Shown: piece after piece, positions 28,449 to 64,000 of the stretch
Layout of the letters: each line of letters starts with the position of its first letter
How positions within the stretch are numbered: position 1 is the first letter of the stretch
DNA from: Mobula hypostoma
Taxonomy: Eukaryota
Assembly (NCBI RefSeq): GCF_963921235.1
Contig: NC_086097.1
Span: forward strand, 27,034,001-27,098,000
Direction of reading: 5' to 3'
Length of the DNA stretch: 64,000 nucleotides
Translations under genes and position numbers: made by a program
The notes under the pieces: generated by a model
What the model saw: only the letters and a program-made list of their open reading frames with translations
Databases searched by the model: none
Told to the model about the DNA's origin: nothing

Positions 28449-28658
<210 letters not shown>

Positions 28659-30303: not shown

Positions 30304-30504
<201 letters not shown>

Positions 30505-33574: not shown

Positions 33575-33712
<138 letters not shown>

Positions 33713-36120: not shown

Positions 36121-36307
36121 GTCAGCTGGGTTGAGGAGTGCTATTGAACACTTAGATTATGCAATGCTTAAAAGGATTGTTTCCGTTTATAGATTTCAAT
36201 GCACAGTGGATATAACTTTTGGTACTACTAGGAGGTTGTGATAGAAGTGTCCTGATATCCTTAACCATTTGATCAATAATTGAACCAGCTATCATTGTGT
36301 TTGGTGA

Positions 36308-36604
<297 letters not shown>

Positions 36605-38063: not shown

Positions 38064-38833
38064 ACTCTGCCTCAGGAAAGCAGCCAACATAATGAAAGAC
38101 CCCACCCACCCCGGATATTCTCTCTTCTCTCTTTTCCATTGGGCAGAAGATACAAAAAACTTAAAAACATGCACTATCTATGCTCAAAGACAGATTCAGT
38201 CTCACTGTTATGAGATTGTTGAATGAACCTCTTGTTAGATGAGCCTTTGATCTCGCAATCTTGTCATGGTCCTTACAATTTTTATTGCTTTCCTGCACTG
38301 CACATTCTGTGTAACTGTAACACTTTATTCTGCATCTTATTATTATTCTTATTTGTACTATCTTAATGTACTGATATTTTGAAAATGATCTGTATAGTTA
38401 ACATACCAAATAAAGTTTTTCACTATCTCAGAACATAGAACAGTACAGTGATGTTGTGCTAACCTTTTAACCTATTTCAAGAACACTTTAACAGTTCCCT
38501 CCAACATAGCCATCCAATCTTCTGTCATTATTGTGCCTATCTAAGAGAATCTTAAATGTCCCTAATGTATCTGCCTCTACCCCCACCCCTAGCGGAGTGT
38601 TCCACACACACATCACTCTGTTTCTTAAAGAAAAAACTACCTTTGACATCACCCTATACTTTCCTCCAAATACCTTGAAATTCTGCCCCCTCATATTAGC
38701 CTGGAAAAAAGTCTCTGGCCATCCACTCAAACTACACCTCTAATCACCTTGTACACATCTATCAATAATGTAACAACTATAATTCAATTGCCCATCAAAT
38801 GCTAGTCTCTTTTTGCCCTTGGTTTTGTTCCAG

Positions 38834-38988
38834 GAAGGATTGATCGTAAAATTGAATTCCCTCTTCCTGACGAAAAGACAAAGCGCCGAATCTTCCAGAT
38901 CCACACGAGTAGGATGACAGTGGCACAAGATGTGAGTCTGGATGAGCTGATCCTGGCCAAAGATGATCTGTCTGGGGCAGATATTAAG
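38834..38988 (+). CDS. PSMC1: PSMC1 exon 10 ([24 protein letters not shown]...SGADIK)
   Basis: AG/GT boundaries, 155 bp. Confidence 0.97.
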
Positions 38989-40239
38989 GTGTGTGGAGGA
39001 CTTTATTCTCTGGTGTTGTTTCTACCTGTCTCAAGCTAGATTGTGTCCTAGGTATAGGGGATCAACCTATGATATCTTGTGGAGTTCAATATCATCAGAG
39101 GTGATCTCGTTGGTAAGTGCAATACTGTAATTGCTTTGCTACCATGCCTCTACTTGATGTACTGACCTACTGAGATTTCCCGTTTTTATTTCACATTTCC
39201 TATGGTTGCAGTTCTTTGTTTTATTTCCAGCATTTATTGGTACTTCCTGTCTTTGTCCATGTGGCTGATCAATAGACATGAGCTGTTTAGTGAGGGACCT
39301 GAAAAAGATTATGAAATATTCAAGTTCCCATCATCTTTGTCTAAGTGTTTCTTGTTTAGCTACTAGGGTCACAGGACCTTCGGCCCAACTCACCCTTGCC
39401 CACCATGTTGCTGACCAAACTAATCCCACTTGCCTGTATTTGGTTAGCCTATATCTCTCCAAACATGTCCTTTCCATGTAACTGTAAAATTGCTTTTAAA
39501 TGTCATAATTGTACCCACCTCTACCATTTCCTCAGGTATCTTTAAATCTTTCCCCTCTTGCTTCAACCCTATGTTCAACACACAAAGTGCTCAGCATATC
39601 TGGCAGCATCTATGGAGGAGAACAAAATGGTCAACGTTTCAGGCTGAGACCTTCCCATCCACAATCGCTACCTGACTAGCTGAGTTCCTCCAGTATTTTA
39701 TGTGTTTTGCTCATGATTTCCAGCATTTACAGAATGTCATGTGTCTCAGACCTTTTCCCTCTAGTTTTAGACTCCCCTGCCAGGGTTGGGGGGGGGAGGG
39801 GAACAGACTGTGGCTATTTACCTTTTATTTATATATATCCTCCAGATTTTATAAATCCCTATAAGGTTGCCCCTCAACCTCCACCTTTCCAGGGGAAAAA
39901 GTCTTATCTAACCTATCTAACCTTTCCTTAACTCAGGCCCTTAAATCCTGGCAGCATCTTCATAAATCTTCTCTGCACTCTTTCCAGTTTAAAGATGTCT
40001 TATAACAAGGCAACCAAAGGTACACAATACAAATTCAGTCTCGCCAACATCTTCTATAATCTCATTGTACTTATTACAATCAGGAATTTGTAGAGAAGAT
40101 GATTACTCTGATGTTGAAGTGTCCGTGAGATTTGGTAAGGGACTGGTAGGAATTTTAAAAAGTTCAAAGTAAACTTAATGATCAAATTTATGGTGTGGGA
40201 TCTAAGGCCCCTGTACCTCTTTCCTGATGGTAGCAGTGA

Positions 40240-40446
<207 letters not shown>

Positions 40447-43980: not shown

Positions 43981-45358
43981 CAATGCCTTGAAGATGTATT
44001 CAGACCCCACAACTATTTTCACATTTTACTGTCTCATTTTCTAAATTTAAAATATATTGAAGTAGGATTTTTAGCTATCTACAAAACATTGTGCATCAAG
44101 TCAAATCAAAAGAAAAATTCCAGTTTACTAAAAATTAAAAAACAAAATTGAGGCTGAAAATATATCCATCCCCTTTGTAATAACTACACTGACGTTCCTC
44201 AGGTGCAATATATTACCTTTTCTACATCAGTTTGTTGATGTAGAAAATTGGATGATCAACTCTCTCTCTGTAAGGTCCAACAGTGTGGACATCTCATTTT
44301 ACAACAGATCAAACCAAAATGAAGACAAAAGAGAATTCAAGACATGTCAGGGAAATGATAAGAAAACCACAAATCTGGGGATGGGTACAAGACCATCTCA
44401 AAGGCATTGGAAAATATTGCACCTCGAAATTCAGTGCAGTCTATCACGAAAAAGTGGAAAAAATATGAAGCTACAGTCACACTGCCTTGGTAAGGCTGCC
44501 ACTCTAAACTTAGTTGCTGGAGAAGAATTGCGTTTGTTAGAGAGCCTGCTGTGACACTAACAGGTAGTCATTCTGGTGAGTAAGCTGCTAAAGTCTGGCT
44601 GCAACTGCAGATGAAGTTCATGGCTCCACAATCTCTAAGGCCTTGCACAAAAACGGCACTTATGGAAGAATGGCAAGGAAGAAACCCTGGCCAAAGAAAA
44701 AGCATATTCTTGCCTGTAAGGACTTTGCAAAGTGTCACTTACAAGATACCGTAAAGATCTGGAAGAAGGTCTTGTGGCTGGATGAGACTAAATTGGAACT
44801 TTCTGGCCTCGACACTAAGTGGTACATGTGGCATAAATCTAATACTGTACATCAACCAGGTAACATCATCCCTAGGGTAAAGTATGGTGGAGGTAGCATC
44901 ATGCTATGGGGATGCTTTTAAGCAGCAGGGACTGGAAATTTGGTCAGGATTGATGGGGAGATGAATCTTGCTAAATACAGAGAGGTCCTGGATAAAAACC
45001 TGCCAGAAAGCTTAAACTGGGGAGCAAGTTGATCTTTCAGCAGGACAATGACCCAAAGCACACTGTCAGAGCAACTACGGAGTGGCTTCAGATGAAGAAA
45101 ATTAATGTCTTTGAGTGGCCCAGTGAGAGTCCTGACCTTAACTCAATCAAACATGTCTGACAAGACCTCAAGATTGCTGTCCACCATCACTTCCCAACTA
45201 ACCCGACACAGCTTGAGCAATTTTGCAAGGAGAAATGGGTAAATCTTGCTCCTTCACATTGTGCAAAGCTAATAGACTTATCCAAAAAGACTGCTGGCTA
45301 TAATAGCTGCAAGGTGGTTCACTGGACAAGGGGGGATGAATACCTTTCCAAGGCATAA
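43981..45358 (+). mobile_element. Degraded Tc1-family DNA transposon
   Basis: TIRs CAATGCCTTGAAGATGTATTCAGACCCC / GGGGATGAATACCTTTCCAAGGCAT, TA flanks, transposase remnants [30 protein letters not shown] and WPSESPDLN. Confidence 0.9.
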
Positions 45359-48112
45359 TACATATGACGAATAAGGTTAATCTAATCTGGTTTACTAAAA
45401 TGTGTCCACAATTTGCTGCAATTTCTTGTGGTTATGGGCAAAGCAACAATTAATAAAATGTTAGGCTTACCTAAAGAGCGAGATGACTTTCTCAAGTCAT
45501 TAAGCTTGCTAATAAATCCTGAAAGCAGTCCTTTGTTAATTATTGTAACTACCAAGCAGAACACTGTTAACCTGGGTTGCTGAAGGCAGCAGCTGATTGT
45601 GCTGGTCCTCATTGAGTCTTAGCCTAAGGGCTGTGTTAGTGGAGGCCTGTTAATGTTTGATGTGCTGAACTAACAGCATGAATATTTACAATGCAGTGGA
45701 AGAGTTCAGGGGCCAGAGGTGAAGGTAAATGGCAGTGATTGACAAGGGCAATCGTTCAAAGGGATTGAGGGAGAGAAGTCCAAAGTAGTTGAAGCACATC
45801 AACCCGTGGGAACTCAGTGGCAGTGGGTAGAGCTCCTGTGACCCAGGTTCAAAGTTCCAAACAAATTTATCAAAGTACATATATGTCACCATATACAACC
45901 CTGGGGTTTTTTTTTTTGGAGGGATGCACAGTAAATCCAATAATCATAATAGAGTGAATGGAAGACAGCACCCAACTTGGGTGTTCAACCAGTATGCAAA
46001 AGAACAAACTGCAAATGCAAAAGAAAAAAGTAATATTAATAAATAAACATTAAATATCAAGAACATAAGATGAAGAGTTCTTGAAAGTGAGTCCATAGGT
46101 TGTGGGGACAGTTCTATGATAAGGCAAGTGAAGTTATCCCCTCTAGTTCAAGAGCCTGATGGCTGGGGGGTAATAACTGCTCCTGAACCTGGTGGTGTGA
46201 GTTCTGAAATTCTTCCTGATAGCAGCAGTGAAAAGGGAGCATGACCTGAGCTGTGGGCCCCGATGATGGATGCTGCTTTGCTGTGACAATCCTGACACTG
46301 CGTGATACCAGAGTGGAGTTTGCACGTTCTGGCTGTACCACACAGGTACAGGCTGCCCCACATCTTAAAGATACACAGATTGGTAACGTGTCCCAGTGTG
46401 TAAAAGAGTGGTAAAATCGGAGGAAATTGAGGGAAATTATGAAGATAAAATGGGACTGGTGTAAATGGGTGTGGACTTGATGTCTAAAGGGCTGGTTTCA
46501 GTGATGTTTGATGATATGGAGTGTGTGTTGTTGCTTTGGTTTTTTAGCCTTTTCCCCTTTTAGCTTTATTTGTCACGTGTACAGTGAAATGCATGGTTTG
46601 TGACAAACGAAATCAGAGGGGAGTGTGCTGGGCGGCCTGCGTGTGTCACCACACTTCCGGTGCCTCATAGCTTTCCCACAACTGACTAAGCCTGACCCGT
46701 ACAATGTGGGAAAAACCCAAGCACCTGGAGGAAATCCTCGCGGTCACAGGGAGAATGTATAAACTCCTTACAGACAGCAGCGGGAATGGAACCCAGATCA
46801 GTGAAAGCTGGCACCGTAAAGCGATGCGTTAACCGCTGCGCTACGTGCTGCCTGCTTTGGTGGGAGTGAAATTGGGTTGGGAGGCTGGAGTTGGGATGTA
46901 GACTTAAGATATTTCACAAAGTGTTTAACTACCACTGCCTTAAAAATAGTTAAGGATTCTCCTCCACAAAAGGCAATGGAAGCAGATGACCCTCAGAGAA
47001 TGAACAGTGCCTTGTTTCTGTCTTTGAGGAAAACTCTAATTTTAAACTGTGCCCCTTGGTTCTAAATTCTCTCACAGAATATGGCCAGCACAAGAACAGG
47101 CCTTCAGCACATGATGTCTGTGCCAAACACAGTGCAGAATTAAACGGTCCTGATTAAGGATCCCAGTCCAAAATGTTGACTGTTTGTTCCCTCCAATAGA
47201 TACTGCCTGATTTGTTGAGTTGCTCCAGTATTTTCTGTGTGTTGCCAAATTAATCTATTCCCTTCTGCCTGCAGATTCCTGTATCTATCTAACAGCCTCT
47301 TAAACCTCACTAGCTCACTATCACTAACCTGATAGTTCTTTTCCGGTCACCCACCATTCTCTATCTAAAAATCTTTCTCTGCCCTACAACACAAAAACAG
47401 TCCTTTTGCCCATCTAGTCCATGCCGAAATATTATTCTACATAGTCCCATCATCCCAAGGTCTAAATTTGTTTCTATGTCTTATTTCAATCGTTTTCTCC
47501 CACTGTGCCACCCCCCTCTCTCTGACATGGCCTACCCAATCTTTCCTCATAACACAGTCACTCTTAAGTATTGGTCTGGTACACGTCCCCTCGGCTTCCT
47601 CAAAACACAAGTGAGGATTTGTTTTAACCACTCATCTGTAAGATAGGATCTCAGTCCCACATTTCTACCTGTGTCTTTGTGGAAGGAACACTCCTGACAA
47701 GTATTTTCTTAACATAGAAGTACAGTACAGGCCCTTCAGCCCAAAATGTTGCACTCAATCTTTAACCTATTTTAAGATCAATCTTACCCACATAGCCCTC
47801 CATTTTTCTATCATTCATATGCCTATCTAAGAGTTTCTTAAATAGCTCTAATGTATCTATCTGTATCACCACCCCCCCCCCACCCGGCAGCACGTTTCAT
47901 GCACCCACCACTCTATGTGGGGTGGGGGGGAACTACCTCTAATATCCCCCCAAACATTTCACTAATTACCTTATAATTATGCTCCCTTGTATTAGCCATT
48001 TCTGCCCTGGGAAAAAGTCTCTGGCTGTCACATTAGACAAGCACTCTATTCCAGGCAGCACCCTGGTAAATCTCTTCTGCACCCTCCCTAAAGCTTCTAC
48101 ATACTTCCTTGC

Positions 48113-50000
48113 CACACAGAGAAACTACTGAAGGAACTCAATATGTCTGGCAGCATCTGTGGAGAGGAATAGATGTTTCAGGCCGAGACCCTTCATCAGG
48201 ACTGGAAAGGAAGTGGGAAGAAGCCGGAATAAGAAGGTGGGGGAGAGGAGGAGTACAAGCTAGGAGGTGATAGGTGGAAAAGGTAACGGGCTAGAGAAGA
48301 AGAACTCGGATAGGAGAGGAAAGTGAACCATGGGAAAAAGGGAAAGAAGAGGAGTGCTGGGGAGGGTGATAAGCAGGTGAGGAAATGAGGTGAGGGTGGG
48401 GACAGAGTAGAGAATTGAAAAAGAGGGAATAGGGAATGGAGAAGAGGGAAAAATTATTGGAGGTTGGAGAAAATGATGTTCATACCATCAGGTTGGAGGC
48501 TACTCAGACAGAATGAGGGATTGCTCCTGCAACCTGAGAGTGGCCTCATCGTGACATGGACTGGCATGTCGGAATGGGAATTAAAATGGTTGGCCACCAG
48601 GAAATCCTGATTTTTTGCAGATGGAGCTAAGGTGCTTGACAAAATGGGTCTCCCAGTCTACTTTGACTCTCACCAATGTAGAGGAGGCCACATCAGGAGC
48701 CCTGGACACAGTAGAAGACTCCAACAGATTCATAGGCGAAGTGTTGTCTCACTTAGAGGTAAGGAAGAAGGTGAATGGGTGTGTAGCACTTCTACCACAG
48801 CAGGGATAAGTGCCAGGAAGATTAGTGGGGAGGTTCGAACGGACAAGGAAATCACAGAGGAAGTGATCCCTGGGGAAAGCAGAGAATGGGGTGGGGCAGG
48901 GGAGAGGGAAAGATGTGAAGATGGCATACATTGCGGAGAATGGTGTGTTGGATGCAGAGGCTCATGGGATGGTAGGTGATGACAAGAGGAACTCTAGCAA
49001 CATACATCAAAGTTGCTGGTGAACGCAGCAGGCCAGGCAGCATCTATAGGAAGAGGCGCAGTCGACGTTTCAGGCCGAGACCCTTTGTCAGGACTAACTG
49101 AAGGAAGAGTGAGTAAGGGATTTGAAAGCTGGAGGGGGAGGGGGAGATGCAAAAAGATGCACAAGAGGAACTCTATTCCCTGTGAAGGTGGTGGAAAGAT
49201 GGGGTGAGTGCTGATAGGGGGAAATGGAGGAGATGTGGATGAGGGTAACATCAATGGAGGAGGAAGGGAAACCTCATTCTTTGAAGATGTTTCTAATGTC
49301 CTGGAAAGGAAAACCTAGTCCTGGCAACAGATATGGTGGAGACAAAGGAATAGAGAAAAAGGAATAGCACTTTTCCAGGAGACAGGGTGAGGTATAGTCA
49401 AGATAACCGTGGAATCGGTAGGTTTATAAATGATATCAGTAGATAATTTGTCTCCAGAAATGGAGAAAAAGAGATTGAGAAGGGGGAGGGAGGTGTCAGA
49501 AATGGACCAAGTGAATTTAAGCAGGTGGAAGTTGGAGGCAAAGTTGATGAAATTGACGAGCTCAGCATGGGTGCATGAAGCAGCATCAATACAGTCGTCA
49601 ATGTAGCAAAGGAAGAGTTGGGGCGCATTTCCAACAAAGGCTTCGAACATGGACTGTTCTACGTAGCCAAAGAAAAGGCAGGCATAGCTGGGGTCCACAC
49701 AGGTGCTCATGGCTACACCTCAAGATTGGAGAAAGTGAGAGGAGCTGGAAGGGAAATGTTCAAGTTGAGGACCAGTTCTACCTGACCCAGGAGGGTGGTG
49801 GTGGAGAGGAACTGGTCAAGATCTGTTGTTGACAGAGGCAGAGAGCTATATGGGCTTTTTAATGGGGGGGGAATAGAGGTATACAGGGACTGGACATCCT
49901 TGGTGAAAGTGAGGCAATCAGGGCTAGGGAGTTGATTGAGAGTTGTTGAGATCAAGAGCATGTGAAGTACCATGGATGTAGCTGGGAAGGGACTGACCTA
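48113..50000 (-). mobile_element. Degraded Penelope-like element (RT, endonuclease remnant and terminal repeat)
   Basis: DVQSLYTSIP, PSYACLF.GYVEQ, YIDD, LKFTWSIS and VANHFNS peptides; hammerhead-like core at ~48173-48205. Confidence 0.8.
48997..49160 (-). mobile_element. Second young short Penelope-repeat insertion, nested in the older Penelope element
   Basis: 15-bp TSD ACAAGAGGAACTCTA at 48982-48996 and 49161-49175; near-identical to 14695-14790. Confidence 0.8.
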
Positions 50001-50892
50001 GAGAGATACATTGTAACTTTTGTTCTACACTAAAAATCTTACAAATGTTCAGTGGAAACCAGGATACATAATTTTGTTTGAAATGTCCTTGGGATGACTG
50101 CAATAATCTACAGTGTAAAAGTGGTGCATTTCATGAGTAGCTAATGTCTTTTAATGTTAACACTGTATTTAAATAGACTCATTACCATCACTTAACTCAA
50201 ACTGGCACCAATTTCACAGCCCATTTGTTTTTGATGAGTTCCTGCTAAACTCTGCAGTACTTCAAGTACCAAGTTTGCATTTTTGACCCTTATGTGGGTC
50301 TTTATTTCACAAATTGGCATCTACACTTATCACATAATAGGCCCTTTTACAGTGATTAAAGCAATTGTTAAACAAAATGTAGCACGTATCATGTAGAAAT
50401 ATCTCAGCCAGAAGTCTCCCGGAGGCTGTCTCTGCCCACTGGAGGAAATCCGTGCTTATTCAGGACTTCTATGGCACCACGGAAGGAATTCATAACCAAC
50501 CTGATTTTTCTATTTCATAGAATGAGTGGGCAACTTGCTCAAAGCTGCCCCTCCAGAAGAGAATTTTCACCTGCAAAGAGCAGGAACCAGCAAATGTCTC
50601 TCTCAAAAACATGAGCGCATGGGCTGAAGAACCTGAATCCCTACATGGATCTTTGGTGGATCTCTAGTTAAACATTAGCACGGCAGCTTAATTAAGAGTC
50701 AATCTGCAAGGTGTCTAAGCTTCTTGGCAATGGAGACATTAGTTACAACCTGCTTTAGATCTGTTCTGCTGAGTTTGATCATCAATACTTGCGAGAACCG
50801 AGGCTCTTGCTGAGGCTACAGAAGGTCTTGGGTGCTACAAAAAGCAAGACTTGGTTCCGAGAATCCGAAAGGTCGAGTTAGTTTCTCGAAGG

Positions 50893-50946
50893 TTAACGTG
50901 CTAAACCCATCCTCTGGGCCAGCTGGTGGTGCTCCAACTCCTGGCC
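50893..50946 (-). CDS. Probable terminal coding exon of the EPCAM-like gene (GQELEHHQLAQRMGLAR*)
   Basis: TTTTGTTTTAGCAG acceptor, phase 0, short tail and TAA, followed by non-repeat UTR-like sequence. Sequence similarity to the EpCAM tail is weak. Confidence 0.6.
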   Translation of the reverse strand, partial: GQELEHHQLAQRMGLAR

Positions 50947-52227
50947 CTGCTAAAACAAAACCCATGAGGGACACAGTGAAATGAGAGAGAGCAAGAACAG
51001 CAGAAAGCACAGGTGAATCTGTGGAATTCACTGCCACAGACGGCTGTGGAGGACAAGTTATTGAGTAAGCAGAAGCTGATAGGTTCTCGATTAGTAAGGG
51101 GTCAAAGGTTATGGGAGAAGGCTGGAGAATGGGGTTGAGAGGGACAACAAATCAACCATGAGCAGACTCAATGGGCAGAATGCTCTACACAACTTCTTCA
51201 CTACTTTGTCTACCTTTGTCACCACTTTCAGAGGACTGTACATTCGTACCCTCAGCCGTCCTGTTCTGCAGTGCTCTCCCTGGGCCCTTGCCATTCCCCG
51301 TGTAAATCGTGCCCTGAAAGGCTGCCTTGATCAGTCTGACCATTGATATTCATTGCCATCATCAGGCACCAGAGATCATCAATCCCTGTTCTGGCAAAGC
51401 AAGTCTTCAGCACCAGGAGTTTGGCTGGACAGTCGGAAAGGTGTCGGTGGACAGGAATACAGAACGGGAATTCCTCTACCCTGGTCTTTATTCCCCATCC
51501 AGTAGACCGTGCAATATAGAGTCATACAGCACACAAAGGGACACTTTGTGCCACAGAGTCTGCACTGACCATCAGTCAATAATCCCACTTTATTCTCCCC
51601 ACGTCCCTGAGATTCTACAAGTTAGGCTGGTTAAAAAGCTATATGGTGTGTTTGCCTTTGTGAATCCAGGGATGGAGTTTAACAGTCACGAGGCAACGCT
51701 AGTGGGCTGCTCAGCACAGTCCTCAGTTCTTTGATTCGGTGCAAATGACACATTTCACTGTGTGGTTCGATGTACATCGAATAATGCTAATCTTTTCTTT
51801 AAAGAGTTAAAGGGTTGAAGGCGAAATCTGATGAGAAAGGAAAGTGGACCATGAGAAAAAAAAAGAGAAGGGGAACCAAAGATGGGGTAAGAGGGGAGCT
51901 GGAATGGAAAAGGAGAGGAGGAGGAGGAGGAGGAGAGAGGAGATTACCATAAGTTCGGGAAATCGATGTTCATGCCATCAGGTTGGAGGCTACCCAAACA
52001 GAATATGAGATGTTACTCCTCCAACCTGAGTATGGCATCAAAATGGCAGAAAAAGAGGCCATGGACCAACATGTCAGAATGGGAACAGAACGTCAAATTG
52101 AAACGGGTAGCCACCAGGAGATCCTGCCTTTTGCAGCAGACAGAAACTGGAACATCAGTCACTGAACTAAATCCCAAGTGACCCTACCATGGAAGAGCTG
52201 CACAGAGGTTTGAGCACGATACATCAC

Positions 52228-52287
52228 CTCAATCACTTCAAACTGGATCCTCTGCCAGTCCTCCTTCGCTCTCCTCCTGACCACAAC
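52228..52287 (-). CDS. EPCAM-like cytoplasmic exon (VVVRRRAKEDWQRIQFEVIE)
   Basis: TTTGCAG acceptor, GT donor, 60 bp; ends the TM helix with a basic stop-transfer cluster. Confidence 0.8.
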
Positions 52288-54018
52288 CTGCAAACACACA
52301 GTGATATTAGGGTTACATCCCCTCGAATCATCCCTCTTGTTTTTCACCCCAAATCATTCTGATGGAAGGCATGAACATCAAATGGTGCTGGAGAAGGCAC
52401 AGGAGTTTCTGCAGAGGCTGGAATCTGGAGCAGACACAAAAAACACTGGAGGAACTCAGCAGGTCAGGCGGCATCTGTGGAGGGAAATGGACTGTAGATG
52501 TTTCATGTCAAGACCCTTCACCTGGACTGGAAGGTACAGTGGAGATAGTCAGTTTAAAGAGGTGAGGGGAAGGAGTGGAGCAAGACCACATTTGGAGTAT
52601 TATGTTCCGTTCTGGTCACTTCCAGGAAGAATATGGAGCAGGGGGTTCCCAAACTTTTTTATGCCATGGACCCCTATCATTAACCGAGGGGTCCATGGAC
52701 CCCGGGTTGGGAACCCCTAAGTGGAGCATGTAGAGAGGGTGCAGAGATTTACCAGGACGCTGCCTGGATTAGAGAGCATGTCTCGTGAGGATAGGCTGAG
52801 CGAGCTAGTTCTCTAGGAATGAAGGAGAATGAGAGGTGTCTTGATAGAGATGAACAAGATGATAAGGAGAATAATTCGAGTGGACAGACAGAGACCTTTA
52901 CCCAGGGTGGAAATGACTATTGCAAGAGGGCATAATTTTAAGATGATTGGAGGAAAGTATAGGGGGATGTCTTGGTAGGTTTTTACACAGAGAGCGGTGA
53001 GTGTGTGGAACGCCCTGCCACGGAGGGTGGTTAAGGCAGATACATTAGGGACATTTAAGAGACTCTTGAAAGGCACATGGATGAAAAGAAAATGAAGGGC
53101 TATGTGGAGGGCAGATTTAGACCGATCTTGGAGTAGGTTAAAAGGTTGGTACAACATTGTGAGTCAAAGGGCCTGTACTGCGTTGGACTGTTCTGAGCTC
53201 TAGGAACTGGCAGGCAGTAGTTGGATCCTGGTTGTTGGGGAGGCGGATGAGCAGATAGACTGGGAATGGAATGAGTGGGAACAGTGACAGAAGCTGGGAG
53301 GCGACAAGGGGCTGATGAAGATGAAATTTGAAAGCAGAGTAAGGTTGGAGCATGGAATTGTTTATTTTGTTTAGAGATATAGCCGGTAACAGGCCATTCT
53401 GGCCCACTTAATTATACCCACGTGATTAATTAACCCACTAACACATACATCTTTGTAAAGTGGTAGAAAAGTGGAGCACCCGGTGAAAATACAGGTGGTC
53501 ACGGGGAGAATGACAAAGTCCTTACAGACAATGGCGCGAATCGAACCCAGGTCACTGGTACTGTAATACTGTTACACTAACTGCTACACTACTGGGCTGC
53601 AATAGAGCGAGAGAGGCGAGGGAGGCAGAGGGGAGTAGCAGGGGATGGTGGAGAGTCGGCAGGTTGGGCAGCATCTGTGGAGGGAAACGGACAGTCAAAG
53701 TGTCAGGTCAAGATCCTTCATCAGGACTGTGAGTAATTTAACTATCTACTTATGTCCATAACCAGCCTAGACAGCAATATAGAGAAAATAGTTTTAGATA
53801 GCAGAGAAGGGGTGGATGAAAGGCACTCTGACAGAGTGAGACCAAATGATTTAGTGTGAAATTCAGTCCAAGCATTAGGTCACCTTTCCCCTGGTGTGTT
53901 TGCAGCTTTGCTAGAGAGCCCAACAAAACCCCATGTTTAACGGGCCATGAAAGCATGCTCAGTGGGTGCTGGTAAGAATAGATCTCCCCCTCACCGCCGT
54001 CCTGCGGAATGTACTCAC

Positions 54019-54201
54019 AAACACTGCGATCCCGGTTAGAATGGCCAGCGCAATGATGATGATGATGGCCGCAAAGCCCGGCGAGATGGACTTCATGTTG
54101 ATCCGGGGAGGCTCGTTGTCAAAGAACCAAACCTGGACCGACTCCCTCTCCACCTGCAAGCTCTTCCCGTCCACTTCCAGAGTGAACCTGTTCGTCTTCA
54201 G
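54019..54201 (-). CDS. EPCAM-like exon with transmembrane helix (LKTNRFTLEVDG...FFDNEPPRINMKSISPGFAAIIIIIALAILTGIAVF)
   Basis: AG/GTGAGT boundaries, 183 bp; juxtamembrane D..PP...M pattern followed by a hydrophobic helix. Confidence 0.9.
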
Positions 54202-56217
54202 CTGCGGGGAGTTCAGAACACTCGTGAATGCTGCTCATATGATGCCACGCGCCTGTGAGCTTTTCACTGCACTGTGCATACACGGTCCTGCGTAAATGAC
54301 AATAAACTCGACTTTGACTTTGAGAGTGACCCAGCCAACCAGACGTGGGTTTCAAAAATAAAAGAAAATCACAGGTAAATAGAAATTAAAATTATGGAAG
54401 CACTCAGCACGTCAGGCAGCATCTGTGGAGAGAGAAACAGTAAACGTTTCAAGTTTATTAAATTATGAGCGGCATAGATAGAGTGGACAAAGAGTATCTG
54501 TTTCCCAGGGAAGAAATGTCTAATACCAGAGGGCATGCAGCAAAAGTGAGAGGGGGTAGGTACAAAGGGGATGTGAGGGGTAAATTTTTTGGGGGGATGC
54601 CCGGAATGAGCTGGCTGGTATAGGTAAATACATTAGAGGCTTTTAAGAGACAGTTAGATAGGCATGTGAATGTGAGGAATATGGAGGGATATCGACATTG
54701 TGTAGGTAGGAGGGATTAGTGTTTGTGTGTATTTGATTTGCTTTTTGGCTGGTTCAGCACAACATTGTGGGCCGAAGGGCCTGTTCTTGGGCTGTACTGT
54801 TCTGTGTTCGAGACTTTGGGAAACAGAAAATGAGTTAGAACATAGAACAGTTCTGAGACGACGTTTTAACCTACTCCCCCACTCTCTGTATTAAAAAAAT
54901 ACCCCTGGCCTTCCCCCTTTCCTCCAACCACAGTTTTAGGTTAGAGTTTTAGAGACTGAGTTATACAGCACAGAGCCTGTGTCTCTATTTCCATGAGAGG
55001 TTAAGGAGGTTCGGCTTGTCGACGAAGATTCTACAGAGGTACTGGTGAAAGTGTCCTGACTGGCTGCATCATGGTCAACTATGGCAATTCTTAAGAACAT
55101 AAGGATCTGCAGAGAGCCAAAATGGCACAGACAACCAGCGACTCGTTGTGTGCAGTTCCAAAAGGAATCATCGAATATTCCCGTTCAGCACTACGACAGC
55201 TGAAATCCACAGTCAGAGCCATGGGCATTTCAGTAAGCAACATGGTCTTAAGCTCTATTTATTTAATTTATTTTATATACTGTATATTTGTTGTAATTTA
55301 CTGTTTTTATATTATGTATTGTACTGTACTGCTACAACAAAACCACAAATTCCACAGCGTATGCCAATGATATCAAACCTGATTCTGATTGTGAATAGTG
55401 TACTCTGCCCAACTAATGCTAGATTTAATAATGAAAGAAAATCTTGTTATTTATGTTTGTACAGCAAGGTAACAGGCTCTTGTATTTCAACTATCACCAT
55501 CCTGAAGTGTTTTACCATCTCAGAGTGCTGCAATGCCTGAATCCTGGAAGGTTACAGAATTATAAGGTCATAAAGAATGGAAAGAGGCCATTTGGCCCAG
55601 CTTATCCGTACTAGCCAAGGTGCCTTCCTGAGATAGTCCCAGTTGCCTGCATTGGCCTGTATCTTTCCTATCCATGTTTCCATCCAAGTGTCGATAAAAC
55701 ACTCTAATTGTACACACCCCCACCACCTCCTCTGGCAGCCCGTTCCATATTATCACCACTCTCTGCCCCCCCCCCACCCCCAGATTCCCTTAAGCGCGAG
55801 AGGAACTGGAAGATACGGAGGTGTGGTGGAAGGAGTTGCCATAGAAACCCAGCTGCTGGGCAATGCCTATTCTCACTCAGTGAGGGAGTTAGTAGAATGG
55901 GGCATCACGGTGGCACAGTGGTCAGTGAAACGCTTTACTGCATAGTGACTTGGATTCAATTCCTACCGCCGTCTGTAAGGAGTTTGTTTGTTCTACCCAC
56001 GACCACATGGGTCCCTCTGGATGCTCCAGTGAGTTGTGGGAAAGCTATGATGATGTCAGAAGCATGGCGACATCTGAGCGTTGCCCCCAGCACATCCTCA
56101 GACCGTGCTGGATCTTTGATGCAAACAGGAGATTTCACTGTACGTGACAAATAAAACCAATCCTTATCTTTAAGAGCAGGGCTATGCTCTCGGGAGAGAG
56201 TCAGGAGCTGTACTCAC

Positions 56218-56316
56218 GTCCCTCTCGATGTAGTATGCCACAGTAGAGATGTCGGCGGGGTCTTTGGTCCCATTCTCGCTCAGCCGGATGCAGATCTCTC
56301 TGGACAACTCGTGGAC
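56218..56316 (-). CDS. EPCAM-like exon (VHELSREICIRLSENGTKDPADISTVAYYIERD), equivalent to EPCAM exon 6
   Basis: AG/GTGAGT boundaries, 99 bp; carries the family DI..VAYY.E.D motif. Confidence 0.9.
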
Positions 56317-56994
56317 CTGTTGCCAAGATGACAGGGAGGCAGGCCGTCAGTTCTGCAGGGCGGCCGACCTTCGGGGTGATAACAGGGGAGCTATTTCAAG
56401 CCTGTCGTAACAGTCAGCGTGCTCACGGTTAATCTGACTCAGGCCTCGTTTCCCCTCTGTACCAGTTCCCCATCACTCTCAATTCCCCGATCTTTCAAAA
56501 CTACCATCTTCCTCCACACTCTCTGTGACCAAGAATTCCACAGATAACAACAAATTTTATGACATATGGCAGTGATATTAAACCAGATTCTGATCCTGAG
56601 ATTCACACCCCTCTGCAAGAAAAAACATCCACCCAGCTCGGCGGTGTGTTGGGAATACTGTATCAGCGTGGATTTCAGATTCAGATTCACCTATCTATTA
56701 CGTGGACAGGGAATGTGTCGCTTGTGCGACAAGAATGTGCTGCGGGCAGCCCACAGGTGTTGCCACACATTCCGGTGCCAAGGTGGCATGCCACAGTGCC
56801 CAGTGGAATACAGGCAGCAGCAGAACGAGCCTTTTTCCTCCCCTCAATCCCTCCCACCCAGTCACAAACACACAGATGCCTCCAACCCCAGGAGGGGCCC
56901 CCTACGTCCAGGATGGGCGGGGTCGTTGGTTATGCTGGCTGCTTTCAGATTCAGGTTTATTTATCCCAAGTACATCGAAACATACAGTGAAATG

Positions 56995-57237
56995 TGTGGT
57001 AAACCATATATATATACATACATGTTTGTAACTGGGTTAACTGTCTGGACACGCCCCTCTGCTGACTGCCCCTGTGGCTCCTCCCACAGACCCCTGAATA
57101 AAGGTGATTTCGCCATTGCTCCTCCTCTCAGTCCAGGGGCAGACACTCAGCATGATGGAGGTCACATTTTACTGCGAATAAAAGCCTTTCAGTATTTACC
57201 CTACTTCCAGTCTTTTGGAGTTATTGAAGGAGCATCA
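56995..57237 (+). mobile_element. Solo LTR (243 bp)
   Basis: TG...CA termini, two internal AATAAA, 5-bp TSD AAATG at 56990-56994 and 57238-57242. Confidence 0.7.
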
Positions 57238-57639
57238 AAATGTCACCAGGCCAGCCAGGGATGTGCTGGGGAAAGACCACAAGTGTTGCCACACATTCCA
57301 GAGGCAATATAGCATGCCCCCAGTATCCAGCAAAACAACACAGAACACAACTTGCAACAAAGCAACATCAAGTCCCATTTCCACCCACCCACCCTCTCTC
57401 TCACAGGGACAGTCCTCCGACTCCAGACCTTCAGGCTCCCGGTCCCCAGTTTAGCACATCTACCCTTCCCCATTCCCCTGTCCTGCCCCCGCACCTCACG
57501 CCTCCTGCTCTAGCTCACTGTATCCCAATCAGATCTCTGAAATGGAGCTGGTTTCTCTTGGTGGAGTTGAACACTGGTGAGGGGAGCCCCCTGTACCACC
57601 TACCCACCCAGATCTCCCATTCAGGAGCCAGGTACTTGC

Positions 57640-57703
57640 CGTGATCTCCAGGATCTGGGTAGCCTTCAGGGTGTACTCTTTGACCAACTTGATGGCCACC
57701 TTC
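57640..57703 (-). CDS. EPCAM-like exon (KVAIKLVKEYTLKATQILEIT), equivalent to EPCAM exon 5; GC donor
   Basis: TTTCAG acceptor, 64 bp, phase 2 to 0. The only nearby donor that keeps the frame is GCAAGT. Confidence 0.8.
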
Positions 57704-58683
57704 CTGAAACACAAGAAACCAGAGAACTTCCTGAAGAAACAGGAAACAGAGGGCAGCACAGTAACAAGATGATAAGAGGCATAGATAGAGGGGACAGTCA
57801 GAGACTTTTTTCCAGGGTGGAAATGGCTAATACAGTGGGGTATAACTTTAAAGTGATTGGAGGAAAGTATGGGGGAGGGGATGTCAGAGAAAAATTCTTC
57901 ATGAAGAGGATGGTGAGATGAGACGGGGTCGACAGGGGGAGGAGAGGGGCTGCCTCCTGTCACGTGCTGAGTTATGTTCACAACTCCGCAGTTTCTTGAG
58001 GCACGGCAAAGGTGAGCAGAGTGAACTCCAACGGTAAACAATCGGACAGGATAGCACGATGGTTAAACTTCTGCTGGTAACAGAGAGACATGAGTTCTAA
58101 TCCCATCCCAGCAAAGACATACAATAGAATTGATGAGAAACTATATACAAGGTTTGACAAAACTATCAATGCGCAAAACGAAGACAGGCTGTGCAAATAC
58201 AAAAATACAATATATTAAAATACAAGTACATACATCAATATTGAAATTGAGTCCTTAAAATTAAGTAGAATCAGTTCAGAGTTGAGGTGAGTGAAGTTAT
58301 CCACACTGATCTGGAGCCCGATTGTTGAAGGGTAATAACTGTTCCTGAACTTGCTGGTGTGGGACCTGAGGCTCCTGTACCTCCTTCCCGATGGTAGCAG
58401 TGAGAGGAGAGCATGGCCTGGATGGGGGGTGTTCAAAGCTACTAGATTCTTGCAAGAAAACCAACCCAATGCCCTTAGGAAAAGATAAGGGCCATTCTTA
58501 CCTTGTCTGGACTGCAGATGGTGGTGGGACCTCTGGTCAGTGTTTACCAACTCGTCTCTCCACCTTCTCCCGAACCCCGGCAAAGGGGTACTGAGGCTGG
58601 TTAACTCAACACTATCAACATCTACACCCCGCCATCCCAAGTGAACCCTCATCCCCCCATGGCTCTGAAAAGATTCTACCCAC

Positions 58684-58755
58684 CGTCGAACAGCTGCCTC
58701 CTTCATCTTCAGGAAGACAAACTCGACTTTGAAGCTGAAATCAATCTGAATGAGG
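58684..58755 (-). CDS. EPCAM-like exon (HLIQIDFSFKVEFVFLKMKEAAVRR), equivalent to EPCAM exon 4
   Basis: CCTGCAG acceptor, GTGGGT donor, 72 bp, phase 2 to 2, keeps the frame open. Confidence 0.75.
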
Positions 58756-58825
58756 CTGCAGGAAGGTGAGAGATTGGATTAGTTACTGAGGCTGGTTTGT
58801 TGAAGGAACACTAACCGGTTGTTCA

Positions 58826-59017
58826 TTCCACTCCCCACCCCACTCCCCGTCCCACCCGTCGTGCAGCACCCACTCCCCGCCCCACCCATCGGCCAGCACC
58901 CAGTCCCTGCCTACCCGTCAGCCAGCACCCACTCCCTGCCTACCCATCGGCCAGCACCCACTCCCCACCCCACCCGTCGGGCAACCCCCACCTCCCAGCC
59001 CACCCGTCAGCCAGTCT
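58826..59017. repeat. C-rich minisatellite, ~29-30 bp unit, about 6 copies
   Basis: Repeated CAGCACCCACTCCC.GCC..ACCC.TC.GC units. Confidence 0.8.
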
Positions 59018-59726
59018 AGCCAAACAGCAGCAATGAGACTGTTGGTTCTGACCAGGGCCTTCCCTTTAAATCCAGAACCAACAGGGGGTGCCCTGACGCG
59101 GGACCTGAATCTCTTTCCTTCACCATACTCCCATCCAATCTGCACTCCTTCTTCTGGGTCTGTGACCCAGACCTGCCCTGCTCAGTATCCCAAGGTCCAA
59201 ATCTCTGACCCTGGGTCTGTGTCTTATTGCCCGGGTCCATACCTTTGTCTTTAGGTCTGCATCCCTTCCCTTGGCTCTCTGTCCCACTGACTGGGTCTGT
59301 ATCTTTGTCCCATCCTTCCCCATGTCATTGTCACAAGGTCTGTATCCCATCAACCCACACCCGGACCATAGTCCTCCATAACCCTCCCATCCGTGTACCC
59401 GTCCAAACTTCTCTTAAATGTTGAAATCGAACCCGCACCTACCCCTGCTGCTCACAGCTCGTTCCACACTTATGAGTGAAGATGTTCCCCTTAAACATTT
59501 CATCTTTCACCCTTAACCTATGACCTCTAGTTGCAGTCTCACCCAATCTCAGTGGGAAGGTACCCCTCAGAAGTTTGTATCTCTCTATCAAATTCCCCCA
59601 CTACATTAGGAATGAAGTCATAACCTATTCGCCCTTTCCCTCTATCTCAGGCCTCAGGTCCTGGGGACATCTTTGTCGATTTTCTCTGCACTCTTGATGT
59701 CTATTCTGGTTCTGAGTAACACTCAC

Positions 59727-59964
59727 TGGACTCGGACGAGCTGGCCGCACTTGGGGTCGTCACCGGTCTTGTCGGTGACCCTGACCCCGGCACTGTCCAC
59801 GCACCAGCAGAGGTTGGAGTCGTCGCACTGCTTGGCCTTGAAGGTGCCGTTCCGCTCGCACTCGGGGTCGTACAGGTCGTCGACCCGCCTTCCGCCCGGC
59901 TGCCTGCTGGCCGTCCGGCTCTTGTGAAGCATCTCCAGGCGCAGCAGGCGGCATTTGGGCGTCA
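59727..59964 (-). CDS. EPCAM/TACSTD2-like gene, thyroglobulin type-1 domain exon (TPKC...LYDPECERNGTFKAKQCDDSNLCWCVDSAGVRVTDK...C...VRV)
   Basis: AG/GT boundaries, 238 bp, phase 1 to 2. Six Cys with the YDPxC, FKAKQC and CWCV..AGVR.TDK motifs characteristic of EpCAM/Trop2. Confidence 0.92.
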
Positions 59965-60455
59965 CTGAGAAAGCGGGAGAGAGGCAGTGGGGAGGCGTCA
60001 TTAAAGCGTGCAGGGGAGATCTGTCGGGACTCGAGGGACCAAAGGTAAAGATAGTTTTATTTGTCACGTGTACTTCGAAACATCGAAACCGCAGCGAAAT
60101 GTTTTCCGTCATGTTTGCAGCGTACTGGCGGCAGCTCGCAAGTATTGCCAAGCTTCAGGCACCAACACAGCAGGCCCACAGCTTCTTACCATCACTAACC
60201 CCTGGGAATGTGGTGGAAACCAGAGCACCCGGAGGAAACCCACGCGGTCATGGGGAGAACGTACAAACTCCTTACAGACAGCGGCGGGAATTGACAGTGC
60301 ACTCTTGGGTGTGCTGGTTGATAATGCAAACAACACAGGTTTTGATATACTTTTTAAAACTTTCCTACTTTTTGCACTACTTAGTTCATTTAACTGTTTA
60401 ATATATATTTACTTACTGTAATTCAGTTTCCTTTTTCTCTCTGTATTGCATTGAA

Positions 60456-60885
60456 AACATAGAAACCTAGAAATCTACGGCACATTACAGGCCCTTCGGC
60501 CCACAATGTTGTGCTAACCATGTAACCTACTCGAGAAACTCCTTGGAATTTCCCTACTGCACAGCCCTCTATTTTTCTAAGCTCCGTGTGCCTATCTAAG
60601 GGTCTCTTAAAAGACCCTTTTGTATCCTCCTCTACCACCATCGCTGGCAGTGCATTCCATGCACTCACCACTCTCTGTGTGAAAAACTTACCTCTGACAT
60701 CCCCCTTGTACCTACTTCCAAGCACCTTATTTCTGTGCCCTCTTGTGCTAGCCATTTCAGCCCTGGGAAAAAGCCTCTGACTATCCACACGATCAATGCC
60801 TCTCATCATCTTATACACCTCTGTTAGGTCACCTCTCATCCTCCGTCGCTCCAAGGAGAAAAGGCCGAGTTGAAGCAACCTGTTT
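60456..60885 (-). mobile_element. CR1 3' fragment
   Basis: LGLFSLERRRMRGDL...FFTQRVVSAWNALP and a CR1 tail. Many similar fragments occur elsewhere (e.g. 27585, 42150, 52730, 61185, 63125). Confidence 0.85.
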
Positions 60886-63800
60886 CAGCGTTGTGCTGCT
60901 GCACGTGCCAGTGATATTAAACCTGATTCTGCTTCTGATTTGGGAACTAAATCTGAATCTGATGAGATCAACACACACAGTCATTTTCCCAGAGGGCACA
61001 GGTTTTTGGTGAGAGGGGAGAGATCTAAAAGGGACCTGAGGGGCAACTTTTTCACATGGAGAGTGGTTGGCATCTGGAATGAGCTGCCAGAGAAAGTGGT
61101 AGAGCGAGGTACAATAATATCTAAATGACTCTAGGTCAAGAACATGGAGAGGAAACCTAGGAAAGGCTTAAAGGGCAGCGGAGGTTTACAAGAATGATCC
61201 TGGGAATGAAAGAGTTAATGCATGAAGAGTATTCGATGGCTTTGGGCCTCTGTCGAAAGGCTTAGATAGAATGGATTTGGAGAGGATATTTCCAGTAGTG
61301 GGAGAGTCTAGGACCAGAGGGCACAGCCTCAGGATACAAGGACGTCCCTTTAGAACAGAGCTGAGAAGGAATTCCTTTACCCAGAGGGTGGTATATCTGT
61401 GGAATTCTTGGCCACATATCAGTATGGAGGCCAAATCATTGGGTATATTTAAAGCAGAGCTTGATAGATTCTTGATTAGTTAGGGTGTCAAAGGTTATGG
61501 GGAGAAGGCAAGAGGATGGGGTTGAAGGGGATAATAAATCAGCCATGATGGAATGGCAGAGCAGATGCGATGGGCCAAATGGCCTAATTCTGCTCCTATG
61601 TCTTCTGGAAATGGGTCAAACGAGAGCAATTGGGACTAACTTCGATGGGCACCTTGGTCAGCATGGATGAATTGGGCCGAAGGGCCTGTATCCGTGTTGA
61701 ATATGATGGGATGTGCAAAGTGAGTCATTGCTTACATAACTATTGCAACAAGAACAGAAATGCTGTAAGATCTCAGCCAGTACAGCAGCTTCTGGAAAGG
61801 AAAACCAGAGAATATTTTTGGTTATCTGCTTTCCAGTTCTGAGAGAGGGTCCCTGACTCAAACATTGACTGGTTTCACATTCCACGTATGCTGTTTGACT
61901 GACTGAGCCCCTTTGCAGATTCATTTTACACACCTATCACTGTACACCTTATATAAAGTGTACACCGTGTGAAAGATATTGACTTATAAACTACAGTATA
62001 TTTTATTTTACATATTATGGATACAATGAGCTAAAAATTCCCATAATAGGTATAAATAAAGTAGAGGAAGAAACACAAAAAGCTGGAAGAACTCAGCAGG
62101 TCAGGCAGCATCTCTGAAAATGAATAAACAGTTGAAGTTTTGGGCCGAGACCCTTTATCAAGACTGTAAAAGGAAGGGAGAGGATACAGAATAAAAAAGA
62201 TAGGCAGAAAGAAGGAGGGCTAGCTGGAAGGTGGTAGATGTGGCCAGGTGGGTGGGAAACCCAAAGGGCAGGAGGAGGAATCTGATAGGAGAGGAGAGTG
62301 GACCATGGGAGAAAGGGAAGGAGGAGAGGCAACAGGGGGAGTTGATAGGCAGGTGAAGAGAAGGGGTAAGAGGCCAGAGTGGGGAATAGAAAAGGGAAGG
62401 GGGAGGGGAAAAATGAAAAAAAAATTACCCGAAGGTGAAATTGATGTTCATGCCATTAGGTTGGTGTTTAATGAAGCAGGGAGTTTACGTAAATGTGTAA
62501 TGTTTATATGGAGACACCAGGGGGCAGCACAGTAGTGTGGCAATTAGTGGAACACTTTACAGGGCCAGTGAATTGGATTCGGTTTTCCCATTGCTGACTT
62601 TAATAAGTTTGTACCTTCTCCCCGTGACTGTGTGGGCTTCCTCCCATATTCCAAAGACATATGGGTAGGATTAGCGAGTTGTGGGCACGCTGTGCCGGAA
62701 GCATGGCGACACTAGTGGGCTGTGTTGGTCATCGATACAAATGACACATTTCACTGCATGTTTCGATGCACATGTGACAAACAAAGCCAATCTTTAAAAG
62801 AGACAGCAGATGCAGCAACAAACAATTTGCTGGTGGAACTCAGCGGGTCGAGCAGCATCTGTTGTGGGGGGGTGAGCAACTGTCAACATTTCAGATCAGA
62901 ACCTTGCATCTGACGGGAAATGATAAAGTGACAAGGTACCTCGTGGCAAGAGGAAATCTTCTGGGTATCAGCAGGGCACATGAAAACACAGTAGGATAGT
63001 GATTGTCAGTGTAGTTTCATTACGTGCAAGGTCTGTGATGAATATGGAATGTAGGGATTGTAAATTTGGACTCTAATCCAGGTTTATGATGTGTTCTAGT
63101 ATTTAGATCTAGTTCTGGTTGTTTTTTAGACCATAAGACCACAAGACATAGAAGCAGAATTAAGCCATCTGGCCCATCGAGTCTGCTCCGCCATTCAATC
63201 ATGGCTGATCCTTTTTTTTAATCTCTTCCTCAACCCCAGTTCCCGGCCTTCTCCCCATAACCTTTGATGCCATGTCCAATCAAGAACCTGTCAATCTCTG
63301 CCTTAAATACACACAACGACCTGGCCTCCACAGCTGCACGTGGCAACAAATTCTACAAATTCACCACCCACTGGCTAAAGTAATTTCTCCATATCTGTTT
63401 TAAATGGACGCCCCTCTATTCTGAGGCTGTGCCCTCTTGTCCTAGACTCCCCCACCATGGGAAACATCCTTTCCAAATCTGTCCAGATCTTTCAACATTC
63501 GAAAGGTTTCAGTGAGATCACCCCTCGCCCTTCTAAATTCCAGCGAGTACAGACCCACAGCCATCAAATGTTCTTCGTATTTCATTCCTGGAATCATCCT
63601 TGTGAACCTCCTCTGGACCCTCTCCAATGCCAGCACATCTTTGCTAAGATGAGTCCAGAACTATTCACAATTCTCAAGGTGAGGCCTCGCTAGTGCCTTA
63701 TAAAGCCTCAGCATCACTTCCCTGCACAGCTAGTGGCAGCAAGGGACATGAGTGATCAGTGGTATAGACCAATCACAGTCTAATTAAGCAGGGCCAACGG

Positions 63801-64000
63801 GGCTGAATACCTTTCAAAGCTTTCAAGGGGAATGGAAACCAACAGATATAAATTTTTCTGTTACTACTTTTGGCTGATTTTTGAATCGAGGTGACCTGCA
63901 GAAAATGAACACTGAGCTGAACTGTACTGAAATATACCTTCTGATTTTGTGTTTTATATTCTGTGTTTTTTCTCTTTTTTTGTTGCCATTTGCACATGGG

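Follow-up and report, generated by a model that had tools for sequence, protein, structure and literature searches.

A slowly evolving, ancestral-type paralogue of EPCAM beside PSMC1 in the ray Mobula hypostoma, probably retained from the first vertebrate genome duplication

EpCAM, the epithelial cell adhesion molecule (TACSTD1; PDB 4MZV, 6I07) and TROP2 (TACSTD2; PDB 7PEE, 7E5N) share a compact ectodomain, a transmembrane (TM) helix and a short cytoplasmic tail. In the portions of the literature drawn on here, EpCAM is described as confined to vertebrates, its only additional gene being the retrogene TROP2, which arose in amniotes by retrotransposition (PMC7563481); its N-terminal domain (N-domain) is called structurally unique and its C-terminal domain (C-domain) is said to lack sequence relatives outside the family (PMC7349879); and one partial lamprey sequence is treated as an EpCAM orthologue (PMC3756971). 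We found no paper on a third paralogue or on an invertebrate origin of EpCAM in the open-access PMC and bioRxiv literature, though subscription literature may mention such members. Here we analyze a 64,000-nt stretch of the Mobula hypostoma genome (NC_086097.1, positions 27,034,001 to 27,098,000; hereafter the window), which carries on its minus strand, at 59964–50893, most of a gene that automatic annotation already names 'EPCAM-like' across non-mammalian vertebrates. The gene is an ancestral-type paralogue of this known family; it is almost certainly a separate and ancient paralogue of EPCAM, and probably the surviving second copy from the first round of whole-genome duplication (1R), i.e., an ohnologue of EPCAM.

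The window gene and EpCAM have their layout and fold in common, namely N-domain, thyroglobulin type-1A (TY) domain, SEA-like C-domain, TM helix and short tail, at an identity of 32–34%. Their intron points are shared, to the extent that a lungfish EPCAM isoform (P0259) omits exactly the stretch encoded by exon 7 of the window gene, and a TM AxxxG motif occupies the same alignment columns in both. They differ in that the EpCAM N-domain has six cysteines whereas that of the window gene's clade has eight plus an acidic extension, in the much slower evolution of the window gene and its longer tail lacking the Y-x-K of EPCAM, and in location: EPCAM adjoins MSH2, whereas the window gene adjoins PSMC1 on another genomic record. 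TROP2 is the closest structural match of the encoded protein (Z 22.2), but it falls within amniote EPCAM, whereas the window gene has introns and predates jawed vertebrates.

Spliced in order, seven exons give a single open frame of 255 amino acids closed by a TAA stop, identical at 255 of 255 positions to the Mobula RefSeq 'EPCAM-like' proteins P0166 and P0168 (337 amino acids). Used as a tblastn query, the Hypanus RefSeq protein P0001 matches every one of the seven exons in sequence (E 2e-48 to 1e-5). The initial annotation, made from the letters of the window, had described seven in-frame exons with the layout of EPCAM exons 3–9, a six-Cys thyroglobulin domain, a DI..VAYY.E.D motif, the sequence AILTG in the TM helix and a longer, divergent tail, and all of these features are borne out. 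The TY exon belongs to Pfam PF00086 (E 1.1e-16), with EpCAM and TROP2 as its best single-domain PDB matches (E ~1e-15), both motifs are present in the spliced frame, and the tail measures 34 amino acids, which is also the clade median, whereas the 31 EPCAM-side rows of the alignment described below have a median tail of 24. No exon 1 or 2 was located in 59965–64000, the last 4 kb of the window, so the N-domain was taken from orthologous RefSeq proteins. The gene is an intact nine-exon member of the EpCAM/TROP2 family (exons 3–9 in the window) encoding a type I membrane glycoprotein of about 337 amino acids.

A separate EPCAM accompanies this gene in chondrichthyans. A search with elephant-shark EPCAM found the chondrichthyan EPCAMs as separate genes, and in 10 of 10 chondrichthyans for which both genes and a record length are listed (Mobula birostris, Hypanus and eight others) the two genes lie on records of different length, e.g., 254.3 vs 171.0 Mb in Mobula birostris and 212.3 vs 112.3 Mb in Hypanus, a comparison that presumes one assembly per species. 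The same holds for coelacanth, bichir, gar, bowfin and eels; lungfish, with both records at 2,000,000,000, is uninformative. The window gene is therefore not the only copy, and the proposal that it is neither EPCAM nor TACSTD2 agrees with its six introns and its position outside EPCAM in the tree. A word-limited search with the TY exon returned 51 proteins at E ≤1e-8 among 72 candidates. Most of them (41 of 51, at 67–96% identity) come from sharks, rays, coelacanth, lungfish, axolotl, caecilians, frogs, bichir, sturgeon, gar, arowana, eels and alligator; three are lamprey proteins at 55–56% and seven are EPCAM-type otophysan or unnamed proteins at 44–49%. No mammal, bird, turtle or squamate member was found among these 51 matches, and the gene may have been lost in mammals. 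RefSeq orthologues include XP_072129055.1, XP_062901124.1, XP_059817227.1, Xenopus XP_002933269.2 and lamprey XP_032811768.1, and their names are automatic and inconsistent (EPCAM, EPCAM-like, TACSTD2-like).

The age of the split was addressed by phylogeny. A profile search over 1.84 billion representatives (50% level) produced 790 matches, of which 150 were listed and 20 named, and a tree was built from 77 hand-picked rows comprising 27 members of the clade including the window gene, 7 cyclostome-type proteins (one unnamed), 32 EPCAM/TROP2 proteins and 11 invertebrate modules. A slowly evolving clade of sharks, coelacanth, lungfish, amphibians, basal ray-finned fish, salmon and alligator fragments groups with one lamprey gene (gene A) at a support of 100/99, and EPCAM/TROP2 groups with the cyclostome genes B, C and D at 98/86. 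A clade consisting of the jawed-vertebrate copies alone is rejected by the approximately unbiased (AU) test with all columns (p = 0.0011). We also computed a reduced tree of 47 rows on the TY-to-TM columns, which excludes the N-domain, the tails and 30 rows that were partial, aberrant or redundant or, in five cases, long outgroups. In this tree EPCAM and B/C/D are united at 99/96 and the AU test again rejects the jawed-vertebrate-only clade (p = 0.022). TROP2 is placed within amniote EPCAM in both trees. The window gene clusters within EPCAM in neither, and the suggestion that it is a third family member from an early vertebrate duplication is supported by a phylogeny of cyclostomes, chondrichthyans and bony vertebrates that puts the split before lampreys.

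Judged from these sequences, the split would precede the divergence of lampreys and jawed vertebrates, a date that suits the first (shared) duplication better than the second. Petromyzon carries three family genes on three records of 23.5, 14.0 and 16.2 Mb. A shared tetraploidy and a later cyclostome hexaploidy are described in the part of the literature consulted (PMC10972751). The presence of lamprey genes on both sides of the node, together with the extra lamprey copies (1 + 2), fits 1R followed by that hexaploidy. The window gene is most likely the slower and more ancestral of the two 1R copies.

Genomic context was evaluated from the one neighbouring gene in the window. As proposed at the outset, the gene converges on PSMC1 (Rpt2), which runs on the plus strand from its GQSQSGG exon at 20623 through the stop codon at 40444–40446 (20623–40446) and has subunit 4 of the 26S proteasome as its top PDB matches (E 1.6e-30); the two stops are 10.4 kb apart. 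MSH2 gave no match within the window when the MSH2-fused catfish protein P0051 was used as query, and the downstream neighbour being PSMC1, the CALM2/MSH2 flanks that would indicate a rearranged or misassembled EPCAM are not what is seen. We take the human chromosome 14 block to be ordered KCNK13-PSMC1-NRDE2-CALM1-TTC7B and to be mirrored by TTC7A-CALM2-EPCAM-MSH2-KCNK12, with the paralogue pairs CALM1/2, KCNK13/12 and TTC7B/A in both neighbourhoods in matching orientation. On the same assumption, the orientation of the window gene (toward PSMC1/KCNK13, away from CALM1) presumably parallels that of EPCAM (toward KCNK12, away from CALM2). To our knowledge human 14q32 lacks this gene, which may have been lost in mammals. 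The available part of one source gives PSMC1, NRDE2, KCNK13, CALM1 and TTC7B together on human chromosome 14 (PMC6834745). Nothing on point regarding the paralogon of this gene was found in the open-access PMC and bioRxiv literature.

Several observations weigh against the explanation as a whole, the mechanism proposed below included. In the reduced tree the clade and lamprey gene A are not a supported group and the root falls among them, and long-branch attraction is possible in both trees, given that lamprey B/C/D share a fast rate with EPCAM and that the outgroups sit on long branches. No amphioxus or tunicate homologue was found among the 20 named of the 150 listed matches; with no such row in the tree, the upper bound on the split is loose and an older single-gene duplication is possible. 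PSMC1 alone was seen as a gene neighbour in the window, besides transposon remnants, and a Pfam scan of 80 of 156 open reading frames (≥75 amino acids, start <48000) detected retroelement and transposon domains only and no KCNK13 or NRDE2 domain. Finally, the TM AxxxG, found in 25 of 27 clade rows, is a weak predictor, as 5 of the 7 cyclostome rows lack it and so do 4 of the 32 on the EPCAM side.

These observations lend themselves to other explanations. The same third paralogue could stem from the duplication of one gene or segment, earlier than or close to the origin of vertebrates, its place beside PSMC1 being incidental, since the only limits that the tree sets on the split are the sampled invertebrates (hemichordate, crinoid, protostomes) on one side and the divergence of lampreys on the other. 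We take the chicken chromosome 3 and 5 blocks of chordate linkage group A (CLGA) to correspond to human 2p and 14q. Pure CLGA blocks are placed on these two chicken chromosomes in the part of the source used here (PMC7269912), which speaks against an incidental position. The paralogue pairs in matching orientation, as assumed above, would do so too, and we regard such a small-scale origin as improbable. A duplication confined to jawed vertebrates, in the second round (2R) or later, would require that lamprey A merely appears orthologous, both genes being slow and the fast ones attracting each other; the very unequal rates and the unresolved position of lamprey A in the reduced tree are in keeping with this, but both AU tests (p = 0.0011 and 0.022) contradict it, as does the identity of lamprey A to the ray gene (55% over TY-TM and 71% in the N-domain, vs 34–37% for lamprey B/C), and it is very unlikely. 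That the window gene is simply the EPCAM of this species, relocated, misassembled or present as a processed or decayed copy, draws on database usage, since the Xenopus, Amia and Chinook salmon orthologues are entered there just as 'epithelial cell adhesion molecule'. This reading is refuted, to the point of having practically no chance of being correct, by six introns, an open frame, a distinct clade, and an identity of 32.5% to Mobula EPCAM over TY-to-TM vs 100% to Mobula EPCAM-like. Assignment as an EPCAM orthologue was rejected because the EPCAM side forms a group without the window gene (100/100 in the 77-row tree, 100/99 in the reduced tree), and assignment as an orthologue of TACSTD2, an intronless amniote retrocopy, because this gene has six introns and occurs in a ray. 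Retention of the window gene from 1R remains the preferred explanation.

The encoded proteins are set apart from EPCAM chiefly by the N-domain. Eight cysteines are found in all 25 clade rows having the domain and in all 7 cyclostome-type rows, vs six in 29 of 29 EPCAM/TROP2 rows. Orthologue N-domains score 14–19 bits against EpCAM_N (PF18635), under its cut-off of 27.5, and their first 23 residues include 10 acidic and 1 basic. Between ray and bony vertebrates the domain is 83–92% identical in 6 of 7 comparisons (salmon 68%), vs 31–44% in EPCAM. In each of 10 ray/bony pairs the clade also exceeds EPCAM in TY-to-TM identity, with 67–78% (salmon 53%) vs 43–57%. The SEA-like C-domain exceeds its Pfam cut-off (PF21283, 32.1 vs 25.9 bits in the orthologue P0001) and is followed by a single TM helix and a short tail. 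An AlphaFold2 (AF2) model of the identical Mobula protein, with a mean predicted local distance difference test (pLDDT) of 78, superimposes on TROP2 over 220 residues at a root-mean-square deviation (rmsd) of 2.4 and matches EpCAM structures in Foldseek at E 8e-18. It aligns to TROP2 from residue 45 onward, and the acidic two-Cys extension has no solved counterpart. A search of the ESM Atlas with the N-domain gave no usable match, and prediction of an ectodomain homodimer gave no usable answer (score 0.01, controls not folded).

The initial annotation had also pointed to basic residues (GGRR) in the TY loop. They are present, but lie about five residues beyond the position of EpCAM G79-R80-R81 and occur in chondrichthyan rows only, so that GGRR was rejected as the counterpart of EpCAM R80-R81; counted anywhere in the loop, a dibasic pair is present in 14 of the 25 clade rows and in 17 of the 30 on the EPCAM side. 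Elsewhere in the family the third and fourth TY cysteines are missing from lamprey gene B (P0370/P0230) and from coelacanth EPCAM (P0444), and a four-Cys (type 1B-like) TY domain is independent in these two lineages.

The profile search also brought up proteins with a Cys-rich domain, TY, SEA-like domain and TM helix at their C-terminal end. They belong to a hemichordate, a crinoid, a priapulid, two bivalves and a centipede, with further unnamed proteins, and include Priapulus XP_014679388.1, Glandiceps XP_077995049.1, Pecten XP_033732549.1, Strigamia T1JEZ8 and Antedon XP_071962823.1, of which the NCBI pipeline names the Priapulus and Antedon proteins 'EPCAM-like'. These are membrane proteins mostly of 900–3000 amino acids with inhibitor-type repeats (Kunitz, WAP, TY, antistasin), and their C-terminal module is that of the window gene at 15–24% identity. 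Upstream of the module, Kunitz domains occur in 8 of 10 and WAP domains in 8 of 10 relatives scanned, and the Priapulus protein consists of Kunitz repeats and the module alone. Counted over the N-domain interval, the 11 invertebrate modules have eight cysteines in nine cases and nine in one, with one partial. A hidden Markov model (HMM) of the invertebrate N-domains alone picks up the ray domain (2.4e-10) and finds as many as four copies per protein in its source proteins. As a separate observation, the eight-Cys domain of the invertebrate-type proteins P0245, P0338, P0341 and P0256 is a repeated module in 1–6 copies, without a Pfam family in the proteins scanned.

Profile-profile probabilities between invertebrates and the clade reach 95.9 (N-domain) and 97.7 (C-domain), vs 79.6 and 71.4 for EPCAM, a comparison that favours the clade because the invertebrate proteins were found with the clade's profile; five cross-domain controls all remained below 2. 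For the Priapulus protein, modelled with invertebrate rows alone at an overall pLDDT of 65 (poor in the Kunitz part), TROP2 ranks first among the structural matches and covers all three domains, with Z 15.9 and an rmsd of 3.6 over 196 residues, ahead of 10.4 for the next row; Foldseek gives E 9e-11. Since cysteine counts, profiles and the Priapulus fold agree, we infer that eight cysteines are ancestral and the six of EPCAM derived, and that the ectodomain is older than vertebrates. The EpCAM ectodomain would very probably be an old bilaterian cassette anchoring Kunitz/WAP/TY inhibitor arrays to the membrane, of which vertebrates kept the bare cassette that 1R then doubled. In this reading EPCAM and TROP2 would descend from the fast copy, which lost one N-domain disulfide and gained a tail binding protein kinase C (PKC), and the window gene would be the copy of ancestral type. 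The retention of an eight-Cys N-domain by the clade and the sharing of the whole N-domain/TY/SEA/TM module with invertebrate proteins are new here.

At the level of individual exons, all on the minus strand, the exon 3 equivalent (59727–59964, 238 nt) encodes the TY type-1A domain with six Cys, CWCV and one N-glycosylation sequon. The exon 4 equivalent (58684–58755, 72 nt, phase 2-2), with which the SEA-like C-domain begins, is omitted in some annotated orthologue isoforms. The exon 5 equivalent (57640–57703, 64 nt) is followed by a non-canonical GC donor, i.e., a GC-AG intron at 57640/57639, and P0166/P0168 are identical at this junction. A second sequon and the DISTVAYYIERD helix are encoded by the exon 6 equivalent (56218–56316, 99 nt), and the end of the SEA-like domain, the juxtamembrane stretch and the TM helix with AxxxG by the exon 7 equivalent (54019–54201, 183 nt). 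The exon 8 equivalent (52228–52287, 60 nt) provides the RRR stop-transfer and the first half of the cytoplasmic tail, which lacks the Y-x-K of EPCAM, and the last coding exon (50893–50946, 54 nt with stop) includes the TAA codon. All acceptors are AG, and donors are GT in five of six cases and GC after exon 5. The exon junctions, including the GC donor, agree with independent annotation given the 255/255 identity to P0166/P0168, and a GT donor at 57636 was rejected for exon 5 as it disrupts the frame supported by RefSeq. A tandem acceptor at 50949, 3 nt upstream of the last exon, inserts one Gln, as in the RefSeq isoforms P0167/P0172.

Downstream, a probable 3' untranslated region (UTR) at 49556–50892 on the minus strand, with AATAAA at about 50306, may extend toward PSMC1. 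A weak hint of expression comes from a 2105-nt contig of run X11, which is RNA only by guess; it covers 49556–50945 and ends at the acceptor of the last exon, and the 717 letters remaining past the acceptor compare with a total of 716 for exons 3–8. Seven listed contigs of the same run, gapped and at a depth of 16–38, lie over 44043–50945 between both genes and would be consistent with a 3' UTR that stretches for several kb toward that of PSMC1. None of the exon joints of the window gene appears among the 15 joints listed from four runs (RNA by guess), with 966 more unlisted and repeats swamping the set.

Some clade and family members depart from the common pattern. The Chinook salmon protein (P0224, Oncorhynchus tshawytscha) is a fast member of the clade with all eight Cys retained, at a branch length of 0.5 vs 0.02 in the eel. 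Alligator models P0041, P0193 and P0194 lack an N-domain through decay or model error, and those of A. sinensis go out of frame just before the TM helix, whereas A. mississippiensis stays in frame. Both the salmon and the alligator copies hint at relaxed constraint along the margins of the clade. Catfishes have an extra EPCAM-type gene (P0047–P0055) with models devoid of any N-domain; one of these models, P0051, is annotated as fused to MSH2 and marks the canonical EPCAM locus.

The remainder of the window also carries mobile elements. An uninterrupted frame of 1012 amino acids for endonuclease and reverse transcriptase (4629–7664, plus strand) is preceded by a GDSL-esterase-like frame (4073–4630, plus strand), and the two (4073–7664) are probably a young long interspersed nuclear element (LINE) of CR1 type. 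L1-like and Tc1-like remnants occur at about 13400–19100 and 44592–44918. The Walker A exon of PSMC1 (about 33680–33700, plus strand) reads GAPGTGK, where GPPGTGK is the usual form.

Based on the likeness to EpCAM, the window protein would display a compact N-domain/TY/SEA ectodomain on the cell surface and could associate with claudins through the TM AxxxG. Binding of claudin-7 by EpCAM requires this motif according to the portion of the source consulted (PMC6179577), and by analogy a role as a claudin-associated surface scaffold has about an even chance of being correct. As its acidic N-domain is exceptionally constrained, the protein may present a fixed binding surface to a conserved extracellular partner, unlike the variable tip of EpCAM. 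The Y-x-K, which we take as a proxy mark of the novel PKC (nPKC) pseudosubstrate, is found in 0 of 23 clade vs 26 of 31 EPCAM-side tails. Since the tail lacks this basic stretch, inhibition of nPKC is probably absent from the window protein. In EpCAM itself the juxtamembrane tail is described as an nPKC pseudosubstrate (PMC7563481, in section 4.4). Taken as a whole, the explanation that combines a 1R ohnologue, an ancestral-type surface glycoprotein and the mechanism proposed here is in our judgement a likely one, marginally less so than the 1R origin by itself.

The main functional alternative is control of surface proteases, with the window protein as decoy, substrate or docking partner of a membrane protease or Kunitz inhibitor, a relic of an inhibitor-studded ancestor. 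The Kunitz and WAP domains upstream of the invertebrate module point in this direction, but both are promiscuous; most clade rows have a basic TY loop, but just the 14 of 25 noted above have a dibasic site. Within the passages used, EpCAM is reported to be lost where HAI-2 fails to restrain matriptase (PMC10482385), but the TY domain of EpCAM itself is reported not to inhibit peptidases (PMC7349879). We consider protease control unlikely as the function, and the complete scenario in which a bilaterian-cassette origin is joined to protease control kept by the window gene only slightly less doubtful. If true, the invertebrate fusion of Kunitz domains and cassette would be a Rosetta stone for the link between EpCAM, HAI-2 and matriptase, and the paralogue might, speculatively, still act in surface-protease control.

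An older and more conserved third paralogue, as preferred here, alters the history of the EpCAM family and links it to invertebrate proteins. As some orthologues carry the plain EpCAM name and lampreys have three genes, cross-species 'epcam' assignments may hit the wrong gene. Through this paralogue the N-domain, the main antibody target, gains an ancestor and likely a conserved job, and with the gene present in Xenopus, the main model of EpCAM in morphogenesis, this is directly testable.

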